Of a stretch of 41,949 nucleotides of DNA, positions 6,794-34,582 are shown one piece after another. The notes below the pieces were generated by a model. It worked only from the letters and a program-made list of their open reading frames with translations. It had not been told where the DNA came from and did no database searches. This DNA is from Atractiella rhizophila (lineage: Eukaryota): contig MU271259.1 in NCBI GenBank assembly GCA_021432655.1, positions 1 through 41,949 on the forward strand, written 5' to 3'. The position numbers and the translations under genes were made by a program. How positions within the stretch are numbered: position 1 is the stretch's first letter; each line of letters begins with the position of its first letter.

Positions 6794-9700
6794 ATGTCTA
6801 CGAGCTTTCAGCACTTTCTAGGACAATACCACTCCGAATACGACACCACTCCGACCTCGAACGCTCCGACCTCCTCACGAGATCTTTCAACCAAGAAACG
6901 GGCTTCTCCCAATCAGGATGACACTAGAGGGAGGCGGAAAGTGAGAAGGATATCTGAGGAAATCGCAAGCGTGTCTGCAAAAGAAGAGCCATTGCCTTTC
7001 AACGAGTGAGTGTCAGAATTTCACGAAGACGCGAGTTCAATAGGGTCGAAGCGTGTCGCACTCTGCGAAATCCACATCTCGTACTCCTTTCCACCAGAAA
7101 TCTCCCAATTCGGCTGTTCGTATCCCAGTTGAAGATGCCAATCCTTACGCCAGTGCCACACACGTCCAGCATAAGGAATACCTTAAGGCTAGCCATTCTA
7201 TCCTGTTTGCGCTTCGTCCCTTTGCTCATGTGTCCCGTTCAGTACAAGGATGATTCCATAGAGAAACTACGACATGCGTTGGAGTTTGTCCAAGCAGAAT
7301 TGGATTCAGCCACTGAAGTGTTCAAAAACGGTATCATCTCAGGAGATGACACGACTCACCCGCTTTCCTTGATGTAAGCTCCAACTTCCTGGATTCAAGC
7401 TCACATCATAAATGATAGGAATCACTTTGGGTCTCGGTTGCGCCTGCTCCAATTTCTCATCAACGCAAAGTCATCCACTGCGAAGCCAGCTCGCCCTCAG
7501 GTCGGCGCAGACCACAGTGGGGTATCTCAACCCCTCGCTCGAGTTGTCTCAGATCAGTCTGAAAGTTACCAAACGCCTTCCCCATGTCTCTCCCCTTCGG
7601 CACGGATCAAACCTCTTCCATCGCTCGTCGTTGATGAACCGCCGAGTCTCGTTCCCCCTCCTCGTCGAAAGGCCAGACTGGTAGAGTTTGTATCGATGCA
7701 TGAAGATGCTCAGCCGCTCGTCAAGAGCTCATATTTTGAGAAACCCGATCGCACAAAACGGTCTCTTCCGCCCAAGTTCGGCAAGGAGACAGCTACCGAG
7801 AATATTGATGTGACAGAGGAGTCCTCGTTGCCTCGTTCTATTATCAATCTCGATACAACGGACGACTCCTCCATGTCTCGCTCCGCTATCGATGTTAATC
7901 GTGAGGCTTCGGCTCGCAACAGCTCGTTCAGACCTAGCGCTGGAAATACTACGGATGCTGCCATCCTCCCTCCATCGCTGATAACGAGGGCTGCATCCAC
8001 TGCTGCACCTCCGCCTGGCTCCGCAGCCAAGCCAATAGCTCTTAGCTCATCACCAAGGGCATCGACCTCTGCATTAACGATTGACGACGATGAACTCCTT
8101 GACGATGAGGAGTTGCTGGCCATGGAACGGGAGGCATTGGCCAACGCTGCGGTTCCAGGCCGTTTACGACCTGCTCCGGTGGAGAGGTATGTTTGGACAG
8201 ATCAAGTGTTCAATATTCTGCGTTCGCGATTTAAACTCGAATCTTTCCGTACGAATCAATTAGAAGCAATCAACTCTACACTCTCCGGCGAACATACCTT
8301 CGTGCTCATGCCTACAGGTGGCGGAAAGTCTCTGCTCTATCAACTTCCAGCACTCGTCAGTAAAGGGAAAACGAAAGGCGTGACAATTGTAGTCTCCCCA
8401 CTCGTCAGCTTGATTCAAGATCAAGTCCGCAGCCTGGTTGATAAAGACATTCCTGCTATCGCTATCAGTGCAAGTTCGAAGGAGAGCGAGAAGAAGTTTG
8501 TGTGGGAAGATCTGAGACGTCCTGAGCCGATAACGAAGTTGATCTACGTCACGCCAGAAATGGTGTGTAATTCGTTCCACACCGTCGCAGCTACTTAGGA
8601 GCAAGGTAGATCGCGAAAAGTGATAATTTCCGAGACCAGATCTCCAGTCTGCACAAACGCAAGCTCTTTGCAAGGCTGGTTATTGACGAATCACACTGTA
8701 TGTTGTCTCAGTCAGAAAGCTGCGAAAGATCCTTTCTAATTACTAGCCAGGTGTATCCCAATGGGGCCACGACTTTCGTCTGTCACTTCCTTCTGACTCA
8801 ACCAAAAACTGACGTTGTGAGTACAGGTCCCGACTACAAATCTCTGGGAACATGGGCGAAGCAGTTTCCAGGCGTCCCCATCCTCGCTCTCACTGCCACC
8901 GCCAACTCTCGGGTACAAGTTGACATTGTCAACGTGCTGGGCATTAAGGGCTGCAAAGTCTTTAAACAGTCGTTCAACCGACCTAATATTTCCTACGAGG
9001 TCAAGGCTCGCCCAAAAGATTGGAATACAGAGGTTTCAAGATATATTAAGGAAAGGCACAAGAATGAATGCGGGATCATTTACTGCTTCTCAAAGAAAAC
9101 GTGCGAGGAAACGGCTATGAAGCTAAACGAATTGGGACTAAACTGCAGTCATTATCACGCCGTACATTATACATTCTCTTCCATCATTTCCCGTCCTGAC
9201 TGTTCCAATAAGGGCATGTCTGCCAAGGATCGAATGGACGCTCAACAGAAGTGGCAAGAAGAAAAAGTTAAAGTCATCGTTGCCACCATTGCGTTCGCTT
9301 TTCCTCTGTTTTCTCTCCATTTTTGCTGATTCCGACCCTAGGTTTGGCATGGGCATCGATAAAAAGAACTGCCGCTTCGTGATTCATCGATCCATGCCGA
9401 ATTCCCTAGAGGGATATTATCAGGTCTGTTTCTCCCCTGAGCCGACAATGTGTTTTAACATCAGGAATAGGAAACTGGGCGGGCGGGTCGAGATGGGAAG
9501 AAGTCGGAATGTGTTCTTTACTTTTCCAACCAAGATTTTATCTCGCACATCCATATGATTAATTCGGACCGCGATATACCGAGGGAACAGAAGGATCGCA
9601 AGATTGAGAATCTTCATCGCATGCAGTCGTATTGCATAAACACTGTGGACTGTCGGCGAACGCAAGTGCTCCAATATTTCGACGAAAGATTCGATTCCAG

Positions 9701-10759: not shown

Positions 10760-13368
10760 TTATGCATTTTCTTTCCCTTTGACTGGTTTCTTCCCCATGC
10801 GGTGCTTGTCTTTCCCGATAACAGTTACACCTTTCCGTCCGACCAACTTCTCCATCATCTCCTTCTTTCCTCCTCCGCCTCTTTTTTCCTTCGCCCTCTG
10901 AATCCGTTCTGCAATCGCTTTCCGCTCTTTTCGCTTTTTCTGCCGTGCACTCTTCTTCTGTGCAGGAGTGAGGGCGTCTTTGGAGGAAGAACTGTTGGCG
11001 GTATAGATTTCCTCTGGAGCGAGAAGAGTAGCCGCAGAAGTTGCGGTGGGGAGCGCTGACTCCATCGCGAGGGACGGCAGATTGGTGATGGTTGTGATGG
11101 TTGTGTTTGGCTGGCAATAGTCAAGTCAACTCAGTCGTTCAAATGAAGTGGGACACTTACAGCTTTCGGTGTGAATCGAGCGTTGCTTAAGGCGTCTAGC
11201 TTACTACTTAGCTGCTCAAATAACAACTCTATCTCGGCATGCTGTTTCTTCGTTTTCTCATCTAATGCCGCATCTTTCTTGAATGTAGGATCGACGGCGG
11301 CGGCTTTATCTTTATTGAACTCGTCTTCGTAGATTTCCGCAAGAGACTTTTGGGATTGGGTATTTTCCAGCTCGAAGTAGCGAGATGGAAGTAAAGCAGA
11401 GAGATCGTAGCTGTGTTTTCGGACGACGTCATCAAAAGAACCCTGCGTGCCAGATTAGGACACATTTTGCAACCCGCTACTGAGGACGTACTTCTAGTAT
11501 CCTTCGTTTGATCATCTCCTCAAGGCTTTCGGTTCTTTCTTGTGTGACGACTGGAACAACCTTGCTGACGTGCTCGAACTCAAGATCCTGCTCCAGAAGG
11601 GAATTTACAGGCCGCTCCTTGGATCGCACTTCTCCTCGCATCATCCATTCTTTCTGTGACACATTCTCCTCTTCAAGGGATTGTATTTGTCGAGTTAACG
11701 AGCGAAGACGAGATTCATGTTTTGTTAATCGAGCATTGTTTGTCGTTTCCGACTCCGACTCGTCCTCCGAATCCGAAATGTCGTCGGAGAACAGGTCTTT
11801 GGTCATCCGTCGCATAGTCGCTGTTCCTCCTTTCGAGGACGAGCCAACCGCTGAAAGTTTCTGTTGATCGCCATCGGCTTCGTCATCCTCACTCTCGCTC
11901 TCATCGTCATCTTGGTCCATCAATCCATCCGCTCCTTCTACTCCTTCCATATCCAAATCTTCACCTTCAAAGCCGTCAGGCCACTCCGCATCTTCCTCGT
12001 CCATCCCAAAATCCTCTCCATCTTCTTCGCTGTTGCTGTCGCTTTCGCTATCCTCTTCCCAATCTTCTGGACCCAGCATCTCACTCAGTTTCCCAATATT
12101 CCCTTTCTCCTTCGTCAAGAGCATCTTAACTTTGGGGACTCCGAATTTCAGGATGAGTTTACGCAGAATCTCTCCCTCTCCTGCATTGGGACGTGGTTGG
12201 ATAGGCTTGACGCGAACGACGGAGGAAAAGGAAACTTGTTTCTTGCCATTCTTCGTTTCCTCTTTGACAGGAGGATGGGTGGTGGATGATTTATGTTTGG
12301 GAGCACGAGGTGGGGGAGCGAAGAAGTCCTTGAACTTCAAATCTGAAGAACGGTGAGCCAAGCGGTGCAAGAATGAGGAAGAGCAAACCAGAGGCAGCGG
12401 TATCATCCCCTTGTTCATCTAGGACTGGGGCAAAGAGGTCGATTCCAAAATCGCTCGTGGTCTGAAAATCGCGTTCTCCAGCATCTGTCTCCCGATGGAA
12501 ACTGCTGAGTGAGAAAAAGTCGTCATCAACCGCTGAATCTGATCGTCTGTTTCTCTGGTAAGCAAATGTCACAAGGACATAGGATAGACGTACGATTTTG
12601 GAAGCGACTGCGTTGATTTTAGAATAGGTATTCGGGACACCATATCGTCTTCTTCGTCTTCGCCATCTAACAAAGCTCGTTTACGCTTCTTCTTGTTGTG
12701 TGGACTCCCCTCGTCGTTGAGGGACGTAACATAGTCCGGGCCCAAAGGGACGTCTTCAACTTCTTCCTCCTCAACGCTAGAATCGCTTTCATCCCCTTTC
12801 GAATCCTCGCTTTCGTCGCTCTCCTCACCAATCAAATCCTGCTCCATTCCCACCACCTTTTCTGCCACCTTGCTCAGCCATCCTCCCTTAAGCTCGAGTT
12901 GATCCCATATTGCTAGAGGTGTGAACTTGTCGCCTAGGAAGAGCTCCTCGATTGGTGTTGGCTGAAGAGGTTGCGATTGTTTCTGAGCGTCAAGCTTAGC
13001 TTTCTTGGATTTGGCGGAGGAGCGAGTGACAGGGGTATCTGCGGAGGGTTTGATGGAGTCAAGGAATGCAGACAGGTGTTTGATGGACTTTGTATCCTCT
13101 TTGACGCCTTCAATCTCGTTCAACACACATTCCCATGCTTTCAATCAAGAGTAAAGAGCTCACTGAAGTCAAACAGCCGCTTCGTAACTCCTAAAAGCTC
13201 CTCCAAAAACTGCTTTCGGTCACCTTCAAAGGTTGCGTTCGCAGGCAGACGATCAGGTAGATTGTTGATCAAGAAATGAGCTTTTTCGCCCAAATTATCA
13301 AGAAATTCCGCGTATTGGGTGTCTACTGGTTCGACTTCAGCGTCTGCGGGCAAGAGAGGGTCGAACAT
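10760..13368 (-). CDS. MPP10: U3 snoRNP / SSU processome protein Mpp10
   Basis: IWDQLEL, DDDFFSL, acidic middle region, LEEENVSQKEWMMRGEVRSKERPVNSLLEQDLEFEHVSKVVPVVTQERTESLEEMIKRRI, LDALSNARFTPK, MESALPT...LLAPEEIY and a Lys-rich C-terminus. Confidence 0.93.
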
Positions 13369-15912: not shown

Positions 15913-18217
15913 ATGGGTCGCATAGCAATGAACGTAAGGGGAGCCTCGATAGGATTGGAAGCCATTCTCGTCGGACTGCTGGCAAGTGTTGGAGGATTCA
16001 TCTTTGGTAAGCTGCTTGCTCCCGTTTAAGGCTTCCAAGCTCATAATCGTGGATAGGATATGACACTGGGTAACCCCTCTATTCTTCTACCGTCGACGGC
16101 GCTCATCTCTGTCAAAGACAAATCTCTGGCTTCTTGGCCATGGACGACTTCCTCCTCCGCTTCGGAAACTGCACAAACCGAGCAGACGCATCTACCTGCC
16201 ACATCCCCACAGCGAAGGAGGGGTTGATTGTTGGTCTGCTCAGTATCGGTTGTGGAATAGGAGCATTAATTGGTCAGTTTTCGATGTGTTGCATCGAGGA
16301 AGTAAAAAGCTCAGTTGGGGATGTGCATATCGTTAATAAAGGCGCCGATCTTGCGGATCGTCTAGGGAGAACGAGAGCGATGTCCGTTGAATGCCTCGTC
16401 TTCACAATTGGCGTCGTCATTCAGAGTATGTTTCCCTAAACGTCATACGTAATGAGAGCACTTATTGTTCAAACAAGTTACCTCATTCTACGCTTGGTAT
16501 CAAGTCATGATTGGCCGATTCGTTGCTGGTATGTGATCTGTCGATATATTGTTTCGTGACGGTGACGCTGAAGGTTTGCAATAGGTTTGGCGGTGGGAGC
16601 ACTCTCAGCTGCGATTCCAGTGTACCAATCAGAGACTGCCCCCAAACAGATCAGAGGAAGTTTGGTGGCTACTTATCAGCTCATGATCACAATCGGCATT
16701 CTCGTCTCTAACGCCTTTGGAGTCGGAACGTCCACTCTGGGGAATTCTGGAGAATGGAGGATCGTTATGGCTCTGGGACTAGTCTTCTCGACATTCTTGG
16801 GAGTCGGAATCCTATTCGTGCGTTACAACCTGTATTCTCTCTCCGACTCGTTTTCTGATGCTCAAACAGGTACCGGAGTCTCCACGCTGGCTTCTTCACA
16901 GATCAAGGGAGGAAGAGGCGTATCGAGCTGTTTGTAGATTGCGAGGCGTTTCAACTGAAGCCGATGATCCCCTTGCTCAATCGGACTTCCAAGAAATGGT
17001 GGCAAGCGTCAGAGAGGAGAAGACGATCGAACCTGCCACTTGGTTGGACGCTTTCCGATGGGAGAACAAGACTCTCTACAGGACTCTTCTCGGTGCAACT
17101 TTGCAATGTTTGCAACAACTGACTGGGTATGCACTATTCTTTCCGATTGGAAGTTAGCTTGCTCATTGTAGTTACGCAGAGCCAATTATTTCTTCTACTA
17201 CGGAAGTGCGTATATCTGCCTACTGTCTAACTGTGTCTCACGTTGGTCCAGCTCAAATCTTTAACGGTGTCGGAATCAGCAATCCTTTCGTTGTCCAACT
17301 CATCCTTGGTGCCGTAAACGTTGTAACCACGTTTTTGGGTATCTGGCAATTGGAGCGTTTTGGCAGGCGCTGGCCTCTGATCATTGGTGCTTTATGGGTC
17401 AGTCTTTTCTATTTTGATATAGTTTCGACCTCGCTAACCATCCCCTCGTAGCAATCTGCATGGGTATGAACTATTATCTGTGGATTTGATGAAGCCTCTC
17501 ATATCTGTCCACAGCTTTTCGTTTTCGCTGCCTCAGGAACCGCAAAGGATCCCACGGAAAATAAGGGAATTGCCAACCTGATGATCGTCGCAGCTTGTTT
17601 GTTCATCACCGGTTTCGCTTCGACTTGGGGACCGGGTATTTGGATCGTTATTGGCGAGACCTTCTCCTTCAGGACTAGGACGAAGCAGGGAGCCATCGCG
17701 ACCGCTTCGAATTGGTTGTGGAACTTCATGCTGGCTTTCTTCACGCCTTTTGTCAGTGCCTCTCATACATTTCTCTGCATTAGATTTGACAGTCTACATG
17801 TCTAGATTACCGGCGATATTGGCTACGCATATGGATTCGTCTTTGCAGGGTGTAATTTTGCATCAGCGCGTTCGTCATTTCATTCTAACGCGGAAGATCG
17901 TTTCTAATCAGGTCTCGTAGTTGTCGTTTATTTCTTCCTTTACGAATCTTCCGGTTTATCGCTTGAAGCTGTTGACCACATGTACAACGATCCTAACGTG
18001 AAACCTTGGAGTTCCAGCAAGTGGGCACCTCCTGGTCAGTACTCTTTCCCCTGAGGTGATCTACATTCCTAACGATTTGTAAATATCAGGATACAAGAAT
18101 CGTTACCAGTTTGCGGAAGCTTTAGAGAGCGGAAAAGAAGCGCCGATGGAGAAGGAGTCGAAATCTTCTTCTTCTGGAGTTGGTACATCGCACGGCGAAA
18201 AGACGGAAGAAGCATAG
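15913..18217 (+). CDS. MFS sugar porter (hexose/monosaccharide transporter)
   Basis: GGFIFGYDTGQISGFL, ADRLGR, PVYQSETAPKQIRGSLVATYQLMITIGIL, PESPRWL, QQLTGANYFFYYG, ERFGRR, WGPGIWIVIGETF, ASNWLWNFMLAFFTPF and ESSGLSLEAVDHMY. Many short introns. Confidence 0.95.
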
Positions 18218-19529: not shown

Positions 19530-20085
19530 ATGAATTCGCTGTACACATCCAATTATGAACACTTTCTTCAAGAACATTCCACTTCCACATCAAACCGCAA
19601 TCAAAAGGGCAAAGGCAACAATACGTCGAAAACACCTACGCCCTGTGACTCCAGTGTAGAGACTGTTCGAAGCTTGAGTGTGAGTGGGCGGAGGAGAGCC
19701 AAAAGCACAGAAACGAAGGATCCTGAGATAGAAGGAGTGTACTTAGAAGACGAGTTGCCGAGTTTTCCATTCCAATTTCGCGCAGGGGAGAGAGATCTGA
19801 AGCGCTCTGTAGATGACTTGCCGGATTCCTCACTCCTTGAAGTTCTTCATTATTACGCAGCAAGATTTTATCAAGTGAATGGGATGCTTGAGGGTGGAAT
19901 GGCGAAGCGAAAAGTTCATCCGACACACCAAGACGAAACCAACATGCAAGGCAAAATGGATGGGAGTGCTCTAATTGCTCTTGGTCAGTCTCTCTTACTC
20001 TCGCTATTTGGCTTAAGTACTGCATTTTTTTGTAGGAGTGATAATGGAGGAGACAGTGAAACATTCATTAGGTCGTCAGTCATGA
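19530..20085 (+). CDS. RRN10: Rrn10-like RNA polymerase I upstream activation factor (UAF) subunit
   Basis: LPDSSLLEVLHYYAARFY and MDGSALIALG|VIMEE (one intron) match the fungal Rrn10 pattern as I recall it. Spliced stop TGA 20083-20085. Confidence 0.65.
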
Positions 20086-20955
20086 ATATGCGATTTCGAC
20101 ACCAGTCGACATCATAGTTGCGCTAATTTTGAGAGCATTGTCTCATGGGTCCGTGCGCATGTCGCACATGCACTCGGTTTGGACGCTGATTATTCATTGT
20201 TATGATCCTCATATTCCTGTCCACCTTCTTTCGCCGTTTCTTTCGTTTCCTCCGAGTCTGTTCCTCCTGTGACATCGACCGCTTTAGTTGAAGCATCACA
20301 ATATAAACGTGATGAACAATTGGCACTCATCGTGATGCGAAATGACAAAGTTTCATCTCGCCTCACTCTTCTAACGCCTTCCAGGCATATTCAGTTCTGA
20401 TCCTTTGACCCTTCTTCCTTGCCTGAAATTAATCCCCCCACAAAACGGCCTCCGCAAAACCGCAACAACCGAATGGGGAAAGAACGGAAAGCCGGGAAAC
20501 CCCCACCCAACAAGGGGCCTGCCTAAGGAAACAAACCCCGCCAAGTTGAAAAAAAAGGAACAAGAAAAAAGTTGGGAAATTTAACAACCCCCGGGGGGTC
20601 CGAACCCGCCCGAAAAAGAAAGAACCTGCAGATCTGGCAGGATGCCACTGGTGAACCTTCAAAATGCGCCAAGAGATACACCTGGAATAGAGCGTATTTA
20701 CACGCTCGCCTGGAAGAAAGTGACTTGTCTTTGTGGGCTAATTTGTCTTCATCGTCGAGTCGTCCGCCCTCCAGATTCAACCGCCGGGATTCTTATCCTG
20801 TTGGGCTTTAGGGCGGCGCGGGTACCAGACGTCTGAATTTAACAGACTTTTGGAAACAATAAAATGAAGGCAAAACGATGGAGCAGAACGGCGCCAGTTG
20901 CCACCAAGCCTTGAAAGGTCACCTCTTCCTGTAAGGTTGTACTCGACAAATCACT

Positions 20956-23900
20956 ATGACCTCCCATTTCAAATCATTGTCCCTTCTCTCTCTATGCATA
21001 TTTCTTGAAGTTCTTGGGCAAGAACCCGAAGCAGGAGCAGAGGAACGAAACGGAATCCGACCTCAAACGGGTTGGACTATCTTGGGAGCTTTCGCCGGTG
21101 CAATCTGCCTCATTTTTCTGAGTGTTTGGCTCAGGTGAGTGGTTCTATCATGTTCCCATGCACCGAACTCCTGCTGAAACATCGGTGCAGGAATTTCTGT
21201 GATTGGTCAACTTTCTTTTTTGGCCTTCTTTGCTCACCTTTCACGATACTGGAGGTGATCCTCCAGAAACTGCAGGTGATCCTCTGCGTTCCAGAGGATC
21301 GCCGGTTCAGTCTCACCTTCTGGATCGACCCTAGCCTTTCCGGCAGAAATCGAAGAATATATTACTATATAGAACAAGTCATGAAGAAGCTGGTTCTTGA
21401 TCCATCGTATGACCTGGTTGCAGCCGAGAAGCTTCGCTTTAAATTGTGAGCCTTCCTGTTTCGATTAACTGTTTTCTCTAAAGTATTTTGCTTAAACCGT
21501 TTGGGGAAAAGTAAAGTCGAAAAGTATCTCAGGAACTCAAAGAAGACGCATACAACGTGTTTTGCTGAGGTTTGGCGCACTTTTGATTCACAATTAAACG
21601 AACTCTCCAGTGCCCTGTTGCGTTCAGCACCCTCCGAATGCTTCCTTCTACGGTGGGAGCAGACGACTCGTCGCACACTTTCCGGCCTTCAGAGAGCGGT
21701 TAGGCTCCTTGACTACTCAGTGGCGGATCTTGTGAAGGTGCAGAACACTGGCGTTCAGAACACCTTCGAAGAGTGGCTCATGGTCAGGTCGCAGCAGGAC
21801 GGGTTGCCCGCTGTATGTATTCCTTTTCAATGCAACAGCTGACTGAGCTAGGCCGCAACCAGTCCTTAAAACGTATGATAAAAGTCACCTTCTTCTCCGC
21901 TGCGGTTCAGGAAAGTACGGGCGACGGGATTAGGAGCTGGATTCTCAGATGGTATCGGAAGGAGATGGGGGAAGTTGGCGCAGAGAGTGAGAAGAGCCAC
22001 CTACATGACCTTCCATACCTTCCACGCCATGGTTGGAAGAAGAGGAAGAGAATGGAGCAAGATTGCATGCTTTTGATAAGATGTGCAACCTTATTCCGTA
22101 CGCTTATTTTCCCTCAACACAATTGCCTTAAAAACATGAGACAGTTGACTTGGATGCACCGACAAGCACTTCTTCCTACGATACCCTTTTTGCATCTCCG
22201 ATTCTGAACCACGAGCGATCTATTGCACCAGAAGCAGCAGAGCGGCGCCGGGTCAGGATTCGCGCATTGTTTGGGGATACGCAGGAGATGGGAGAATGGA
22301 AGGAGCAGATAGGAAGCCTGAAGGATCAGGTTATCTCTTCATCCTTACTCACAGCCTTTGCTCACAAATAGCATAGCTACTATTGACAACCGTGAAGAAA
22401 TCCTTGCAGTCCGGCGCAGCAGACAGATTGCAGCGTTCCCTAACAGCAGGGAAGGATGGGGAAGAAGGTCTGTCCAGTGTCGTCTTGCGGCGCATTAGAG
22501 GATATTGACAGCCATGACTTAGACCTCAAATACATCCTGGACCTCCTCAAGTTCTTACCGGATTCTCAAGGATGTGAAGCAGTAATCGACGTTCTCGTAC
22601 AATGGATCTCAACGAATGTTCGGAATAGAGGTACGGCATATCACGAAGTAGACTCGGAGGGCAGTGAAGAGGCATTCGATGCCGCATCCTATGTCAACCA
22701 TATGATGGTTGCTTTGAATGATGTAGCCGTGGATGTGAAAGCGTTAGGAGAAGGTGCTTGTTTCGATGAAATCAGGACCAAGGTCGTATTTTATCGAAGA
22801 AGATGTCCATGGCTGATGTCGAACAGGTTTCGATGGAAATTGTAAACGCGACGGGACAGGCAGCAAACTTGCTTTCGTCATATCTTGACAACATGTTGAG
22901 GATGCAAAAGGACCCATTATCTGGACCGTCGCTTGACAACAGCGTCAAAAAGATGGTGAGCCCCACTATCACTCTCTCGCATAATGTATGAGCTGAAGTT
23001 CATCCAGTTGCACATATACTCTTTTCTACAAGCAAAGGACGTCTTTCTTGAACTACACGCTCGACGGCTTGCGAGGAGGATCATAAGATTCGGACATGTG
23101 GATGAGGGGAAAGAAAGGGAAATCGCTCAGCTTATTTTGGGGAGAGAGTCAGAATATGGTCAAAAAATCACCCGACTGCTTGCCGGTACCTTTTCTCCAT
23201 GTGTCTTTTGTCCTCGAAGCTGATAGGTTCTTAGACGTAGACTCGTCAAAAACATTGGTTCAACGATTCAACCAAGACAGAAAACCCGGCATCGGTTTGT
23301 CCACTCCTTTGTGCTTTGAGCCAAGTTTGATGGGTTCGCCACCTTGCAGCCTTTCGCGCCATTGTATTTTCTGCTTCTGCCGTAACCCTCCCTCCATCCG
23401 ACATCCATGGTATCAGACTTCCCAAGGAGCTTGGACTTTCACTTGACGAATTCAATGCGGTTTTCAACACGGCGCACCAGTGAATTTCATTTTATCCCTT
23501 GAAATGAGAGCTAATAGTGGCGCAGAGGGCGGAAACTAACATACTTGCTCCACCTTTCAACTGTTGAGCTTCAGACGTTATTTACGACCACCAAATATAG
23601 AATTCAAGCATCAGTTCCCCAAGCCACCATTCTCCTTCTCTTCACCGAACATCAAACAGATATCAACGCGGCTAGAGTCGCACAAGCAGTAGGATTGTCG
23701 GAGAAGGCAGCTGTCTTACTCCTCGAAGGATTGGTTAAGCGAAAGCTGTTACTTTCTGAGAATGGGGAATACTGTCTAAACTTTCGTGAGACCTTCACCA
23801 ATAGATGCGGCAACATTACTGAGGGTTCCATAGAATTTTCCAGTAACAGGGTTCAAATACCACTTCAGGGTCTCAAGGTGGATAAGCATAAGGAGGAAGT

Positions 23901-24304
23901 ATCAGCAGCAATCAAACATGTCGACAAGAGTCGACTTCTCACAATAGAGGCCGCAGTCGTTCGGTGAGCTGTTCTTGCGGTGTTACCTTCTTCGATTAAT
24001 CATTGCATGTGGCTTCTTAGAGTGATGAAATGTTCGAAAGAGCTAACAACACAGAATTTGGTGACTGTCGGTCTTGATTTCCATCAAGTATTTGGTGATT
24101 CCATTGCTTGCCTCTAGGAGACAATCAGCGCCGTCCGTGGCCAATTCAAACCTGTCATAAAGGATATCGACAACGCCGTCAGAGCACTGGTTGAAAAGGG
24201 ATTCTTGAGCAAAAACGATGGAGAACCCGAGACCTATACAGTGAGTCTCCGTATTCCATTACATTTTCTTCACGTCTGACTCTTTCTGGTAGTACGTTGC
24301 ATAA
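20956..24304 (+). CDS. Divergent cullin-family protein with predicted N-terminal signal peptide and transmembrane helix
   Basis: Cullin homology segments AANLLSSYLDNML, YSFLQAKDVFLELHARRLARRII, EYGQKITRLLADV and GRKLTYLLHLSTVEL. Neddylation motif RLLTIEAAVVR|VMK; IKDIDNAVRALVEKGFL; C-terminal YT|YVA* (TAA 24302-24304). The 5' exons were joined by hand, so the N-terminal extension is less certain than the cullin call. Confidence 0.85.
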
Positions 24305-26252: not shown

Positions 26253-27491
26253 ATGGCGGCTTTTTCTCAGACGAGTTTTAATGCAGCAAGGTAAGTCTTT
26301 GCGGCTACGATTCATCTTCACGAATTAAGCAACATGGTTCTCAGATATCTATCCGCTCGCCCGTCTGTCTTCGCAAGTAATTTCCCCAGCCGTAGTCTTA
26401 CCTTTCCAACATCTTAGCGCGTATCCTTCGCGGGTATACAATGTCCTCAAGAAGTATCACTATGAGCTCTATGGAGGTGCTCCTCCTGCCGGCTTAGGTG
26501 CAACCGTGGCCATTGATCTCGGTTGTGGACCTGGAACGGCAACTCACTCACTTTCTCGCTTTCCCTTCTCGAAGACGATAGGCATAGAACCATCCCCTCA
26601 AATGATTTCCGTAGCGCAGAACTCTGCAAGAGATATTTCTAAGCTGATTGTGACGACGGAGACTGACGCTCAACCTGGAGAGGTGGAGTTCAAAGCGGGA
26701 AATGCGGAGGAGACAGTGAAAGAGTTATCTGAAGCAAGCGTAGATTTTATTGGAGCCGGTCAGGTATACCCCTCTCTCTAAAACATCAGGGAACCACGAA
26801 TAATTCGTCCGAAAGGCAGCACACTGGTTCGACTACGAAGGAGAATTGTATGATGTTTTCGCACGCGTTTTGAAGGAGAGAGGAACAGTTGCATTCTGGG
26901 TTAGCTGGTTCCTTTTCTCGCACATAGTGTCCTGAAACTGTACCAGGGATATGGGGAGATGTATTTTCCTTTCCACCCAGAGCTTTCGGCTGCAATAACT
27001 CAGTATTCGGGTGAAACCTTACGTTCGCTTTCGCAAACGATCATTTCTTCCGTGTCCTGACGAAGGGTAAAGGTGATTTCTGGCAGCAACCAGGTCGCTC
27101 AAAGACAGAGCAACTGCTGCAGCCCATCCCTTTTCCCCCTGATAACGGAAAATGGGACACCTCCTCCTTCGTCCGCATCCAATGCCCTTCACCCACTCTA
27201 TCGATCCCGGAACCAACTACTCTCGTTATACCGGACAATTCTGTTAATCGGCAACTCCTCAGTGGCGAAGATTTATATCTCGAGGAGGAATGGACAACAG
27301 CTAATTTGTTGGAATACCTCAAGACTTGGAGCAGTGCCCATGTGTACAATCGCAAGCATGGGCTAGAAGGGGACGAAGTTATTGAAAAGCAAGTATGGAA
27401 GAAGTTTGACGAATCATTCAAAGAAGACGAGAAATTTATTGTGAGATGGCCAATGGGTTTCATCATGTTCAAGAGGTCTGGAGGGAAGTAA
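26253..27491 (+). CDS. Class I SAM-dependent small-molecule methyltransferase (Tmt1/Crg1-like)
   Basis: MAAFSQTSFNAARYLSARPAYP, AIDLGCGPG, IGIEPSPQMI, SVDFIGAGQAAHWFD, RGTVAFW and EYLKTWSS. Confidence 0.9.
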
Positions 27492-27985: not shown

Positions 27986-30180
27986 TTAATCTGAGCCGTG
28001 AAATGTCGACTGCCTGCTGGGCTGGAGAAACATTTTCTGGCTCGAAGACATGCTCCGAAGTTGTGCCCAGCCTTGTGACTGTGGTCAGCTCTTCAATATG
28101 ACACTCTGGTTAACGAACGCACCTTTGAGCGCAAAGAGCAGCAAAATCTCCACGAAAATCAGGGCGACGAAGGAAACGGTTAGATTGAGGATTCCCATCA
28201 TATGATCTAGGAGTGGCCACCTTCGTCACCACATTGTGCAACATTGCTAAAAAGAGGAGCGCACCCAGTCCATTTCTCATCGCCGCAAAAACCACTTGTT
28301 CTGAGGACTCCACAAAAGTAACTCCTCCGCAAGCGAGGCAGAAGGCAGCTACAAGCTCAGTTGGCGGTCGTGAGGGTAGAATAGAGGACGGCGGCCTCAG
28401 GAAGAGGAACACTGCAATTTGATTTGATTCCGTCATTCATTACAGTCTCACAACAATGAAGAGACGGACCATAAGTCGCCAGTCGTGCGATTCCAAAGAC
28501 AGCCAAGAAGTTTCCCCAAAGCTTATGGATGTCAGTGGAGAACTGATACGTTTGACTACTCTGCACATCAACACGACGCACTGTGTAAGGAGCAGGTACG
28601 TACTGATGGGATCCCATTGCCGCACCGACCAAGAAAATAGTTACGGCTGGAATTGGATTAAAAGAATAACCGTAAGTGATGGGTTTTTGCACTTCAGATA
28701 GGCTGCGATGGTTGAGACGAGAAACGGAGGCGAGAGAAAGCCAATTCTTGATCCGCTTGCTTTCGAGAAGTAAACCCAGAAGTCCCATGTAGCACATCAT
28801 TACAGCTAGGACTATTCTCAGACCCCATCTAAAGCAATGAAGAGAATAGCTAACCAATGCTAATGTGTTGTAGTTCCTTCACCGTTACGGGATCTGCGGC
28901 TGTCTTCCCTGTTCGCTCGCCAAACTGCTGAGTGGCACCATATCTGAAACTTATAATTAATGGAGAATCAAACAAGGAAGGAAGACGGCTCACATGAAGA
29001 TGAAAAAACATTCCACAAATTCTGCAGAAGGGAAGTGATCCCTCCAAGAGTTGGTAAGTGGCTTCTTGTTCCAACTCCATCCCAGTTCGCTCCAAGCTCC
29101 TAGGTACCTCGCGAAAGTCAAGAAACCGTACCAAATGAAGACGGAGCCCTTTTGCCAGCATCAGCACTATCTTCTATTCATAGAAACAGATTAAACAACC
29201 TTAATGACATGAGCAAGACAGTTATTAATGTAGGCGGCTCTGCATTGACCGGTGTAGATAATGCCTCCACTGATGGCGGCCGCAAATCCAAGGAGAACGA
29301 CAGACCGATCTAATCCGATGATTGCGAATTTGACAGCCGTTTGGAGCGCCGACTTCTCCTGTCTCTTGGGAAGATAGTCAAAGTGATCCTTTTCGGGATC
29401 CCAAGAAGGCATCCTCCTATGGGAGTTTCGAACCGATTGTCTATATTCGGAATGAGGGAACGACTCGACGGAGGTCGGTGAGCGAGCTCCTCCGGTTCGC
29501 TCGTCAGAAGCGTCTCCTCCTCGTTCCCGTTCACCGAAGTGTAACCCTGGGTGCGGGAGCAAGTCTTCCCGGTCAACCATTTGCGTGCGAAAGAAATTAG
29601 GTCGCTCAGGTTTAGGAGAAAGATGATGGCGATCGTTGCCCAACTGAGCGCGGAATGCGTCTCCCCCTCATAAAGATTCGGAGTCGACTTCGAGTACGCG
29701 ATACCAAATATCGTTCCAAACCCAAGCGTTGAGAGGAAGGCCAGTTGAGCAGGTATCCACAAGGTATGGTGAGCGGCTTTCAGAAAGAGTGCTGTTGATG
29801 ACCGTAAGCGGCGTGCGACTCGTCGGGAAGAGAAATTACGTACCAGCTGGAAGCGCGATGAAGAAAGATAGTGTCATCGAAACCCAATGTAGCGTCATCA
29901 GGAGAGGTGCTCCATCCTCCCCTTCGGTATGGTCGTAAGCATAGAACGATAGGGGATCATCCCCATGTTCCCTATGAATCCGCTCCTCGTCCAGTTCAGC
30001 CAGAGCCATTCCATGGTGACCACTTCCCACCCCCTCTCCTCCCTCCTCGTGCTGATCCATGTCCATCTCATCCCCATCTCTCCTCGTCAAGGCGTCGATC
30101 GAATGTTCATTGTTAGAGAGTCGTGTGATAGCAGAAGAAAACACGGGAAGAGCCAGGAGCAAGGCGGTGTTGAGCTTCAT
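27986..30180 (-). CDS. Ytp1/DUF2427-family polytopic membrane protein (YCR061W-like)
   Basis: Signal peptide, His/Met/acidic N-terminus, LHWVSMTLSFFIALP, TPNLYEGETH, NCLAHVIK, ELQHISI, NPIPAVTIFLVGAAMGSHQ, IHKLWGNFL and RPPTELVAAFCLACGGVTF. Spliced stop at 27986-27988. Confidence 0.85.
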
Positions 30181-30718: not shown

Positions 30719-31969
30719 TCAACGCCTTCGCCTGTCTGAACCTCTGTGAGAGTCATCCTTCTCTCTACGCCTTTCCCGTTCTCTTGAACTGTCCCTATCC
30801 CTCCGCAGCTCTCTATCCCTATCCTTGTCCTTCCTCGAGTCCCTCTCTCGATCCCGGCCCCTTTCCTGTCGTGAATCACTATCCCGCTCACGCCGTGAGT
30901 CTGTACCACGATCCTGATCTCGTCGTGAATACTTCGACTCTTCATACTCGATTTCGCGTCTTCTAGAGGAGTGATGGGGTGAAGATCTCCTGGAATCTCT
31001 TCTGGAACTCGAATGGGAGTGTCCATTTCCACGAGGAGAAGCAGATCTCGATCTGTCCCGCGAAACTGGTGCAGAACTGCTTGAAAACTGTGGATTACCA
31101 TCAATGAGCAGGTTTAAAGATGTAAATGAGGAAGTATGGCGCACTTCATCATCTCTTTCCTTTTCCCTCCTTGTGAGCGGCACAAACTTCTCCTTCCCCT
31201 TTCTCCGCTCCTCACGCGCTCTCTCCGCCCTCTGTGCATCGTCCAATTCGAGCGCGTCCGCCATAGGTTTCGCTCCAATACCTAAGAAAGCTGGTCTCGC
31301 TGGAGGCTGGTAGGCTGGCGTCATGGCGGCACCTTTCTTGAGACCCATCCCTCTTAGCAGTGCTAGTCCGAAAGCGGCCACAGGTACGCGTTCGTAGTCT
31401 TCCAAAGTCGACGAATCAGGTCGGGATTGAACGTCGGCTCGAAAAGCGTCCAGTTCATCCTGTTCCCCAATGTTCGGAGCGTTATCCTTCACTTCGATGG
31501 CTCCAATTTGATTCGCTGCCACTGTCGGATCGGTAGTCGTTGCTGTAAGAAGCTCCTTGAGCGCTTTCTGGTCTTCTGTTTCGTCCACCTTTCCTTCTTC
31601 CTCCTTTATTTCCTCCTTCGCGGGCTCCATGACCACATCCGCCTCAACGTCTTCAACCTTCTCCTTCTTCTTCACAGGTTGCAATCCCCCCTGCCTCGTC
31701 TCGACCTGAACGTCCATGTCCGCCTCTTTTCGCTTCCGAACAAGCGAAGAGTTCCTCCAATCTTTGTCAGGAGCGACGGCAATCACGAGCTCTTCATCCT
31801 GCTTCTTCTGTGCAGCTGACCTTGAGTCGAACTCGACCACCGCTTCGTCCACCGCGACTTCTTCTTCGGAATCGGAGAAGGTGACAGGTTGAGATCTCTT
31901 TGATGGTGCATGAGGTTTATGAGCTGCTTTGGGAGCTGGAGGACGTGAGATCTTGAAGGAGAATGACAT
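30719..31969 (-). CDS. SPP2: Spp2/MOS2-type G-patch pre-mRNA splicing factor with an RS/RD-rich tail
   Basis: RPDSSTLEDYERVPVAAFGLALLRGMG...RPAFLGIGAK (Spp2-type G-patch) and a C-terminal RDRD/RS-rich region. The likely start is MSFSFK at 31969. Confidence 0.85.
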   Translation of the reverse strand: MSFSFKISRPPAPKAAHKPHAPSKRSQPVTFSDSEEEVAVDEAVVEFDSRSAAQKKQDEELVIAVAPDKDWRNSSLVRKRKEADMDVQVETRQGGLQPVKKKEKVEDVEADVVMEPAKEEIKEEEGKVDETEDQKALKELLTATTTDPTVAANQIGAIEVKDNAPNIGEQDELDAFRADVQSRPDSSTLEDYERVPVAAFGLALLRGMGLKKGAAMTPAYQPPARPAFLGIGAKPMADALELDDAQRAERAREERRKGKEKFVPLTRREKERDDEVRHTSSFTSLNLLIDGNPQFSSSSAPVSRDRSRSASPRGNGHSHSSSRRDSRRSSPHHSSRRREIEYEESKYSRRDQDRGTDSRRERDSDSRQERGRDRERDSRKDKDRDRELRRDRDSSRERERRREKDDSHRGSDRRRR

Positions 31970-32128
31970 GTTGTCGTCGTTTCGGGTGGCAAACTTAGCG
32001 GTAGTTATTTCCGAAAATGGAGATTGCCGCCTCGCAGTTTCCTCATAAAAAGGCAATCGCAAGCACCAACAAACTATCATTTCACTGCAGCAATTTTTTT
32101 GGAGCGGACTAGTCACTGTCTTGTGAGA

Positions 32129-33075
32129 ATGCCAGGTGCAGTCATCGACTTCAACGTTTCTCCACCGCGCTCAGGGAAAACACCTCCGAAGCCATCAAAC
32201 ACACTCATCCTCGCCAATCTTCCCGATGCCCTTCTTCAAGACCCTCTTGCCTCTGCTTTCCGGGGACATTTCGCCCATTATGGACGCATGAGGTGTTGGG
32301 CACCGCTCTCGAGCATGGGACGGGTATTCGTCATTTACGACGAGGAAAGCGAGGCCGCGACGGCGAAGCAGGAGATGGATAAGTTCGTCTGGGGGGATGA
32401 CAGAGTCGAGGCGGATGGGGATAAATCTACGGCATGGTACGGTTAGATTTCTTTCGTGTAAGCTGCAGTTCTCGTTTTGGAAGGTCTGGTGGGATTTTTT
32501 GCATCGGAGAAAAGATAGCTGACATTTTTTCGCACTTTGGCAGCTCCCCACTTCGTGTTTACTTCGGCCCACGAACGGATCCTGCGCTCCTATCAGAGCC
32601 TTCTTTCCTCCAGGTCCCAACGACGGACAAGAATTTTTTGATATCCCCTCCTGGCTCTCCGCCGGTTGGATGGGAGCAAATCGTTGAAGATCCGCCAAAT
32701 GCTGCTCCGCTTGCTCAAGACCTCATGCAAGCACTACGGTATTTGACTGTCGGACACGAAGATTTTTCAATGTCTGTAGGTGGAGAAGAGGATGCTACAA
32801 ACTCAGGAACACCAAAGGAGGTTGTGCTCATCGACACTGGGGCAGATTCTAATGTCCCCTCATTGAAGATTTTCAGTCCACCTGATGGCGCTGGTTCTGG
32901 CAGTAGTGCCAGACAGCAGAAGATCAGTTTGGTGAAGGCGACGATTGAATCGATGGGTGGAACAATGGACGACACCCCTTCCTTATCTGTGTTTCCCCCT
33001 GGCGATCCTCTTGAGGAAGAAGATATGGCCGGGGCAGCGCCGAAGATCAAACCTACCGCGAGGCCGCCTCTGTAA
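32129..33075 (+). CDS. RCN1: Calcipressin / regulator of calcineurin (RCAN family)
   Basis: N-terminal RRM-like part (NTLILANLP, WAPLSSMGRVFVIY), the signature KNFLISPPGSPPVGW and C-terminal TARPPL. Confidence 0.93.
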
Positions 33076-33597
33076 TGATTTGTTGGAGTTAATTGTACGA
33101 GTTTAGGTGAGCATCTCCCGCCTTTTGTTGTTTTGGGAAAGAGCTGCGCATAAAAGAGGATGAAAAACATTTCACAGACCTGAACTGATTTCAAGTTCGT
33201 CTCGGAAAGTGAGGACAACAACTTATTGCCTTTGACTTCTGATACCTTTTCTCTGGCTTTCTTTTTATGCTACTTCAGTTTGAGTGTGAACTGACAAGAC
33301 CGTTTACAGGTGCTAGAAAGTGTTGCTTGTGTTTCTACAAACAGTGTACTAGTACTTCTGAAGTGCTTTGTCTCAATGGGATGATGTATGATGTCGTAAA
33401 CCAAAAGTCTTTGTCACAGACGTCTCCCCTACTGCATGAAGCATGAACATCGATTTTGGTAGCAGGATGACTAATAACCGGCCCTTTCCGGTTTAGCCGG
33501 TGGTGAGCATTGGACCTTGAATTCTGGGCAACAGCTACTTCTCAGTGCAGTCGTCCAACCTGATAATACTCTGGCTCAGTTCAACGTGTTGAAAAGA

Positions 33598-34582
33598 ATG
33601 GCGGACGCAGTCCAAAAGCTTACTCCAACCGTCACGCTTATCCGCAACAGCAATCCAGGTCCCTTCACGCTCACCGGGACGAACACCTACCTTCTTCAGA
33701 ACTCAACCGATCCCTCCACTTATACGCTCATCGATACTGGTTCTCCATCTGAATTGTTGCAGCCTCCGAGCTCGTACATTCCCCGTCTGCTCGAAACCAT
33801 CCCGGCTGGAGGCTCAATCACGGATGGTGCCATCTCTCTCTCTCCTTTCGCGAGATGGAGTAGAGCTCATGTTTCCTTCAGTCGTGATTTCTCATTGGCA
33901 TACGGACCATACCGGTGGCATCCCCTCGCTATTTGAGGCCCTCTCTTCAAAAGTCCCGAAGGTGTGGGCACATCCAGCTCTTGCGGATCACTCCAGCCCA
34001 ATCAACGACGACGCTTTCACACCTCTCCGAGACGGGGAGACGTTTCCGCCCCGTCCGTCACTCGAAATTTATCATACGCCTGGTCACACAAAGGACTCGA
34101 TTTGTCTTTTCGATAAAGAGGAAGGATTGCTTTGGACTGCAGATACGGTTCTTGGACAGGGAACAACAGTCTTTGAGAATCTCGGAGAGTATTTGAGCAG
34201 CTTAGAGCGAATGAGAAAGCTCGTTGAAGATGCAGGGAAAGAGGTGCAGATTCTTCCTGGTCATGGACCCATGGTCAAGGAGGGCTTGGCGAAGATTAAA
34301 GAATATATCGATCATCGAAAGCTGAGGGAAAACCAAATCGTTTCAAATCTCAACTCGACTCCAAAAACAATTGAAGGGTATGCAGTCATGTCTTTCTCTT
34401 CACTCACTACTCGCTGAGACTTGATCTACAGTCTCGTCGCTGGAATATATCCTGAGGTGACAGATGAGAACGTCAAGCTCGCTGCAGGTCGAGGTGTCTT
34501 TCAGGTGCTTGAAGTGTTGAAGCAACGAGGAGTGGTCGAGGAAGTAGATGGGAACTGGGTACTGAAACAGGGAAAAATGTAA
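33598..34582 (+). CDS. Metallo-beta-lactamase fold protein, LACTB2-like
   Basis: NPGPFTLTGTNTYLL, LIDTG, SHWHTDHTGG (HxHxDH), HTPGHTKDS, ADTVLGQGTTVF, LPGHGP and EYIDHRKLRENQI. Stop TAA 34580-34582. Confidence 0.92.

Follow-up and report, generated by a model that had tools for sequence, protein, structure and literature searches.

We analysed a window of 41,949 nucleotides (nt) of DNA from Atractiella rhizophila, a root-associated fungus (NCBI GenBank assembly GCA_021432655.1, contig MU271259.1, positions 1 to 41,949 of the forward strand). When the window was spliced at the joints seen in RNA, an open reading frame (ORF) of 857 codons was found on the + strand, running from an ATG at 20956 to a stop codon at 24302-24304. 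The explanation that we prefer, with a probability of about 0.6, is that the product of this gene, 857 residues long, consists of a membrane-targeting extension of 123 residues followed by a complete but divergent Cul1-like cullin. At the transcript level this architecture is real; it recurs in relatives and is found in a small family alone, and membrane anchoring is predicted from the sequence of the extension. To our knowledge, cullins are soluble scaffolds wherever they have been studied and reach membranes only via partners, and a cullin with its own anchor would, if true, represent a new way of building a membrane-bound ubiquitin ligase. A first-pass annotation, made from the DNA letters, had proposed a signal peptide and a transmembrane (TM) helix joined to a cullin at this locus, and its coordinates and quoted residues were all correct in the sequence.

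Gene structure and transcript

Assembled contigs from four runs (X8, X1, X2 and X3), out of eight found, were used as RNA evidence. A contig of X8 (2947 nt, depth 17.5) spans 20811 to past 24500 and contains 15 joints, all of them GT..AG once shifts in joint position are allowed for. Exon 1 (20956-21134, +), which encodes the signal-like start, a polar stretch and a TM-like segment, ends at a GTGAGT donor (21135). The 56-nt intron 1 (21135-21190, GTGAGT..CAG) was spliced out in the X8 contig at the joint 21134|21191, confirming the proposed in-frame connection of exon 1 to a full-length cullin; the remaining three runs have no cover at that point. Exon 2 (21191-21445) keeps the frame of exon 1. 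Intron 2 (21446-21511, 66 nt, GTGAGC..AG) had been predicted at exactly this place, and its joint 21445|21512 was present in two of the four runs (X8 and X1). Exon 3 opens after intron 2 and has its last base at 21812.

The cullin part, residues 124-857, is encoded by 15 exon segments on the + strand (21381..24304), beginning with the end of exon 2, as judged from the X8 joints, Pfam and the fold. After intron 2, the introns supported by X8 joints are 21813-21862, 22098-22144, 22330-22376, 22468-22522, 22783-22826, 22956-23007, 23186-23234, 23295-23349, 23480-23525, 23786-23833, 23964-24020, 24067-24117 and 24241-24292. Apart from an 828-nt intron in the leader, described below, the introns of this gene are 44-66 nt long.

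The largest cullin exon matched two named A. rhizophila proteins, P0001 (735 residues) and P0002 (776 residues). P0001 is the deposited model of this gene, with 734 of 735 aligned columns identical to product residues 124-857, and it begins at the internal ATG 21381 (M124, 21381..21383), a possible second start. The 13 X8 joints downstream of intron 2 match the P0001 exons except for a 3-nt donor difference, and six of them were also seen in X1, X2 or X3. The difference corresponds to a single extra Val in P0001, in which the implied donor of intron 22783-22826 lies 3 nt further downstream than in RNA; the donor at 22783, giving a 44-nt intron, is used by contigs of both X8 and X2. The 5' end of the deposited model is probably truncated. 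The 369 spliced nt from ATG 20956 to ATG 21381 contain no in-frame stop codon, compared with five and three in the other frames, and at the off-frame stop rate (8 in 246 codons) the chance of 123 open codons is about 0.02 by hand arithmetic. An in-frame TAA is found eight codons 5' of ATG 20956.

The X8 contig is colinear with the DNA from 21188 to 21445, and the weak intron 21276-21334 is therefore unused in this contig. Splicing of that intron, with the cullin then starting at ATG 21381, had been named in the first-pass annotation as the alternative to a fused protein; the intron part of this alternative did not hold in X8, whereas ATG 21381 is indeed the deposited start of P0001. Coding differences between the runs and the window were substitutions only, except for one inserted base in X3. 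This insertion, behind 22186, occurs in a contig with a depth of 2.6 and is a likely error. The frame was kept in the other runs, and the residue changes E18G (X8 and X1) and G21A (X1) render the start more signal-like.

The 5' leader (20812..20955, +) is covered by X8 from 20811 and by a colinear X1 contig at 20826-21097. It is preceded by the 828-nt GT..AG leader intron (19984..20811, +), with the acceptor TTTAG|GG at 20811/20812. A 28-nt loose end of the X8 contig equals 19955-19982 and places the 5' part of the transcript in the end of an upstream exon (19955..19983, +) that belongs to an ORF starting at 19530; the donor there is CTCTTG|GTCAGT at 19984. The joint 19983|20812 suggests read-through, bicistronic-like transcripts, in which the upstream ORF would run to 20865-20867 (169 residues) instead of ending after a 52-nt intron (167 residues). 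Polycistronic transcripts are reported for basidiomycetes in passages of a published study (PMC4503453). No Pfam family was found for the upstream ORF 19530-19982 or for an ORF at 20642-20836.

The leader carries two overlapping upstream ORFs (uORFs) on the + strand at 20864-20934, one from ATG 20864 (16 codons) and one from ATG 20878 (18 codons), both with A at -3 and both ending at least 22 nt before ATG 20956. These two uORFs may control translation. Inside the 828-nt intron, an odd stretch at 20430-20620 shows short homopolymer runs (CC, AA, GG, CCCCC) and is maybe a poor-quality gap fill; RNA contig cover was absent over 20600-20730, where the examined part of this stretch lies.

The cullin part, the extension and their relatives

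By sequence and by structural model, residues 124-857 are a divergent, full-length Cul1-like cullin. Both domains expected for the proposed cullin were recognized by Pfam on P0001: Cullin (PF00888) scored 144.4 bits (cut-off 33.2) over residues 262-625, corresponding to profile positions 228-603 of 620, and Cullin_Nedd8 (PF10557) scored 56.1 bits (cut-off 36.9). No Pfam profile matched the first 260 residues of P0001. The nearest sequence matches in PDB were CUL1 (E about 5e-37), CUL2 (6e-33), CUL4B (1e-22), CUL3 (3e-19) and CUL5 (1e-15), all confined to residues 349-735 of P0001.

The AlphaFold2 (AF2) model of P0001, built from 71 alignment rows of which 66 were canonical cullins, had a predicted local distance difference test (pLDDT) score of 82.2 and a predicted template modelling (pTM) score of 0.72, with residues 130-209 below pLDDT 50. 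Foldseek with this model matched full-length CUL1 and CUL2 (E 1.2e-26), and VIA-align superimposed model residues 1-735 on human CUL1 28-776 (Z 34.2, root-mean-square deviation 13.4, 643 residues aligned). In the model, the full-length elongated cullin fold, consisting of N-terminal repeats and a C-terminal globular domain, is present. Since model residues 1-735 cover CUL1 28-776, the extension is an addition to a cullin that is already complete. AF2 of P0002 with six alignment rows gave pLDDT 37.6 and was unusable. K801 (K679 of P0001, codon 24028..24030, +) aligns with the neddylated lysine of the VR-x-MK motif, and this column is K in all 66 canonical cullins and in the four family rows that reach it.

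Segments in the extension were called by Kyte-Doolittle (KD) hydropathy scans and reading by eye. Residues 1-21 (20956..21018, +) form a signal-peptide-like start with K6, the core LSLLSLCIFL, and V at -3 and G at -1 before Q22; its best 10-mer has a KD value of 2.72. A polar stub of 17 residues (22-38; 21019..21069, +) follows, with a net charge of -2 and no N-x-S/T sequon. Residues 39-59 (21070..21132, +; GWTILGAFAGAICLIFLSVWL), followed by R60, form a strong hydrophobic segment that is a predicted TM helix, as the first-pass annotation had supposed: its 19-mer KD value of 2.27 is the maximum across the 857-residue product, and a rough insertion energy was negative. A second hydrophobic stretch of about 30 residues (65-93; 21204..21290, +) has a KD value of 1.77, with Pro and Glu within and with E81, Q85, K86 and Q88 inside. 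The linker motif VILCVPEDRRFSL (residues 89-101; 21276..21314, +) is conserved, being common to P0012 (IILCNPEDRRFSF) and P0009 (IILCIPDDRRLSL), two relatives described below. The cysteines had been proposed in the first-pass annotation as possible palmitoylation sites; among them, the Cys of the ILC-x-P motif alone is common to all three sequences that use this frame.

No Pfam family was found for exons 1 and 2 in an exon-wise scan, and nothing scored with exon 2 as the search query. As a control, 66 canonical cullins were scanned for hydropathy. No 19-mer at KD 1.6 or above was present in 58 of them, and in the other eight the top 19-mer starts at residue 144 or later.

Relatives were searched with P0002 by phmmer against 1.84 billion representative proteins. 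This gave 1577 matches at E 0.001 or below, with just four close relatives, P0003, P0004, P0009 and P0012; the other matches listed, starting at E 2.5e-26, cover the C-terminal half of the query alone. Because there are so few close relatives among so many representatives, these genes appear from their sequences to be a separate, long-branched cullin group, and for the same reason the reach of the architecture in biology is limited. A profile search with the family alignment returned P0002 alone, missing even members of the alignment, and was uninformative. In metagenome scans, 85 stretches were matched by a second alignment and 105 by P0012, none of which was confirmed by tblastn. Residues 1-150 of P0012 gave no usable feature match in the ESM Atlas, where the structural rows had TM-scores below 0.5 and the model had a pLDDT of 0.46.

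The order of signal-like start, TM helix and cullin proposed for this gene was recovered in two homologues. P0002, a paralogue on another contig, has a signal-like start (A-L-A before Q21), a stub, a TM helix (KD 2.26) and a shorter, different linker. In P0012, the signal-like start is followed by a polar stub, a TM helix (KD 2.36), a strongly basic loop and a second stretch (KD 2.56), and the motifs IILCNPEDRRFSF and HVMKK are also present. The third relative that reaches 5' of the M124 position, P0009, is incomplete; it starts within the second hydrophobic stretch (KD 2.34) and bears IILCIPDDRRLSL. The start, stub and helix thus occur together in two of these three relatives. P0003 starts at the Met equivalent to M124, and P0004 is a C-terminal piece. 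The Met at this position is kept in four of the five sequences covering it, P0003, P0009 and P0012 among them, and is Leu in P0002, which therefore cannot start there.

Similarity of the extension to its relatives was compared with composition-preserving shuffles. The extension scored z 12.7 against P0012 (none of 300 shuffles reached the score), while residues 1-60 of the window product scored z 6.1 against residues 1-55 of P0002 (0/300) and z 4.7 against residues 1-56 of P0012 (1/300). The P0002 linker (SSAFRNIVASVSNSGSTFA) matched an unused frame of the window at 21280-21336, with 13 of 19 residues matching and a score of 56 compared with 20.7 +/- 3.8 for the shuffles (none of 1000 reached it). 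Judging from these sequences, either a frameshifting indel and a different intron-1 acceptor set the paralogues apart, or the linker of the P0002 model is incorrect.

A second X8 contig overlaps the window at 21936-21974 only, a conserved piece, and its loose end at 21936 reads PQGIGNAVK, which by eye is P0009 sequence. This indicates expression of the P0009 paralogue in this run too, apparently at greater depth, as the bin depth at this contig was about 85, above the 17.5 of the main contig.

Membrane topology and alternative readings

Under the explanation that we prefer, the hydrophobic start would steer the nascent chain to the endoplasmic reticulum (ER), where insertion would be co-translational, and helix 39-59 would anchor the protein with the 17-residue stub on the lumenal or outer side. 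The cullin, including its neddylation lysine K801, would lie on the cytosolic side, where, with a RING partner bound to it, the anchored protein would ubiquitylate targets at the same membrane. Because neddylation takes place in the cytosol and nucleus, and the neddylation motif is kept in every family row reaching the site, we favour a cytosolic cullin. The second stretch would be located in or on the cytosolic leaflet without spanning the membrane; its form as a leaflet hairpin or an amphipathic helix is speculation. Since P0002 has no second stretch, the cullins of both paralogues would share a side of the membrane only if this stretch does not span it. The first-pass annotation had described a type I single-pass protein. 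Its single helix after a polar stub agrees with the hydropathy, whereas it overlooked residues 65-93 as a possible span. If they did span the membrane, the cullin would be on the lumenal side, and the type I description would not apply.

More broadly, and with somewhat less than even confidence, we propose that Atractiella and close kin possess a small family of integral-membrane cullins with a signal-anchor/TM module and, in most members, a leaflet-inserted hairpin. These proteins would ubiquitylate membrane or secretory-pathway proteins from the cytosolic side, and the internal Met may give a soluble isoform.

Several observations weigh against a membrane-anchored cullin translated from ATG 20956. 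The joint between exons 1 and 2 comes from a single contig of a single run (X8). That contig begins in the upstream-ORF exon, so at least some of the transcripts are read-through products with the cullin ORF in second place, and the two uORFs with A at -3 lie 5' of ATG 20956. The start of the deposited model is ATG 21381, and P0003 begins at the same Met. Identity to the relatives is 33-41% in the extension compared with 52-58% in the cullin part, and since the P0002 linker corresponds to the unused frame, similarity of residues there would partly be similarity of DNA and not a product of selection on protein. In a codon-usage test trained on the cullin part, the extension scored an ambiguous +1.4 bits in frame, compared with 37.5 +/- 9.2 bits for chunks of the cullin and -41.8 +/- 12 bits off frame. 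Four of the five polymorphic sites in the extension alter the residue, compared with 8 of 19 in the cullin part, although these numbers are small. The second stretch is of TM grade in P0012 and P0009. Finally, of 66 aligned positions with at least 85% conservation among canonical cullins, P0001 keeps only 36, and a W-P pair in the RING-box-binding alpha/beta region is replaced by V-T.

The alternative that survives best is that only or mainly a soluble 734-residue cullin is made from ATG 21381, the upstream frame being a long leader or the source of a minor long isoform. We consider this unlikely, although it would agree with the starts of P0001 and P0003, the conservation of the Met in four of five sequences, the uORFs and read-through 5' end, the ambiguous codon usage and the residue-altering polymorphisms. 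It does not explain why the 123 codons are open in frame only once spliced or why parts of the extension recur in P0002 and P0012 at z values of about 6-13 over shuffles, and P0002 has no Met at the M124 position. Furthermore, ATG 20956 has A at -3 and is the first on the transcript after the uORFs. If this alternative includes a minor long isoform, the gene would yield soluble and anchored forms via alternative starts.

A less probable reading, to which we assign little weight, is that the long protein is made and its second stretch also spans the membrane. The cullin would then be lumenal or extracellular, could not serve as a neddylated ligase and would have another role or none. The KD values of the second stretch in P0012 (2.56) and P0009 (2.34) are as high as that of the first TM helix, and the loop between the two segments in P0012 has a net charge of +3, as for a cytosolic loop. 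In the window, however, the stretch reaches KD 1.77 only and carries the polar residues listed above. Two spans would also put the cullins of the two paralogues on opposite sides, the P0002 model being without the second stretch, and would leave unexplained the neddylation lysine and motif kept in four of four family rows.

It is very improbable that exon 1 is effectively a separate small gene, in which retention of intron 1 (the exon-1 ORF then ends immediately at AGG TGA, stop 21136-21138) yields a signal-plus-TM peptide of 60 residues, spliced RNA being a by-product: the stop codon does overlap the donor, and X3 contigs colinear with the DNA across other introns indicate unspliced RNA or DNA in such data, but none of the examined contigs is colinear across intron 1, the sole contig covering it is spliced, and in P0002 and P0012 the same start is part of a single chain with the cullin.

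Comparison with known systems and genomic neighbourhood

The best PDB match of P0001, by sequence and by fold, was CUL1/Cdc53, the SCF scaffold (PDB 1LDJ, 1U6G, 9XZJ). Common to both are the Cullin and Cullin_Nedd8 domains and the VR-x-MK lysine. P0001 differs from CUL1 in its low identity of about 20-25% and in the 30 of 66 changed conserved positions, the W-P pair included, and the gene described here adds a hydrophobic N-terminal extension of 123 residues that is absent from the 66 canonical cullins compared.

Membrane-bound ligase activity is known from other systems. Hrd1, Doa10/MARCH6 and RNF5/RNF185 are membrane-embedded RING ligases of ER-associated degradation. If our model holds, the Atractiella protein would resemble them in bringing a ligase module to the cytosolic membrane face via its own TM segment; however, in these ligases the RING protein itself is in the membrane, whereas here the cullin scaffold would be anchored, and there is no sequence relation. 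HIV-1 Vpu with SCF-betaTrCP and prenylated FBXL2 are examples of an anchored receptor or adaptor drawing a soluble cullin ligase to the membrane. The likeness would be that a cullin-RING ligase is taken to the membrane and acts on membrane proteins; the difference is that in those systems the anchor is on the receptor or viral adaptor and the cullin is soluble, whereas here the anchor would lie within the cullin chain. CUL7, CUL9 and APC2 are described in parts of two papers as atypical cullins with extra domains (PMC9507964, PMC11257990), and the present protein is similar to them, as portrayed there, in combining a cullin core with lineage-specific additions. In contrast, the additions of CUL7, CUL9 and APC2 are soluble domains (DOC, CPH, RBR), none of which is presented in those parts as a membrane anchor.

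The statement in the first-pass annotation that this architecture was not known from the literature agreed with our searches, in which no membrane-embedded cullin was found. The phrases transmembrane, membrane-bound, membrane-anchored or membrane-tethered cullin occurred in none of the papers searched, a coverage outside which most subscription journals fall, and a broader literature search returned nothing relevant on membrane cullins among the matches listed. A rice cullin is stated to be without a TM helix in a passage of one paper (PMC9309799), and the main-text passages of another on the cullins of T. cruzi name no TM-bearing member (PMC5976635).

If the proposed integral-membrane family is true, its members would be the first examples of a cullin-RING scaffold that is itself an integral membrane protein. 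This raises the questions of which membrane is involved, which adaptor would be bound by so divergent a first repeat, and whether the scaffold would be neddylated, and cycled by CAND1 and the COP9 signalosome, while tethered.

No ubiquitin-related gene was found among the neighbours that could be named by Pfam on long open frames. These neighbours encode a DEAD-box helicase, Mpp10, a sugar transporter, a methyltransferase, a Ytp1/DUF2427 protein, a G-patch protein, calcipressin and a metallo-beta-lactamase, and the matched stretches lie at 7378-9326, 11480-12418, 16572-16934, 26329-26778, 28360-29873, 30722-32170, 32425-33072 and 33593-34414 of the window.

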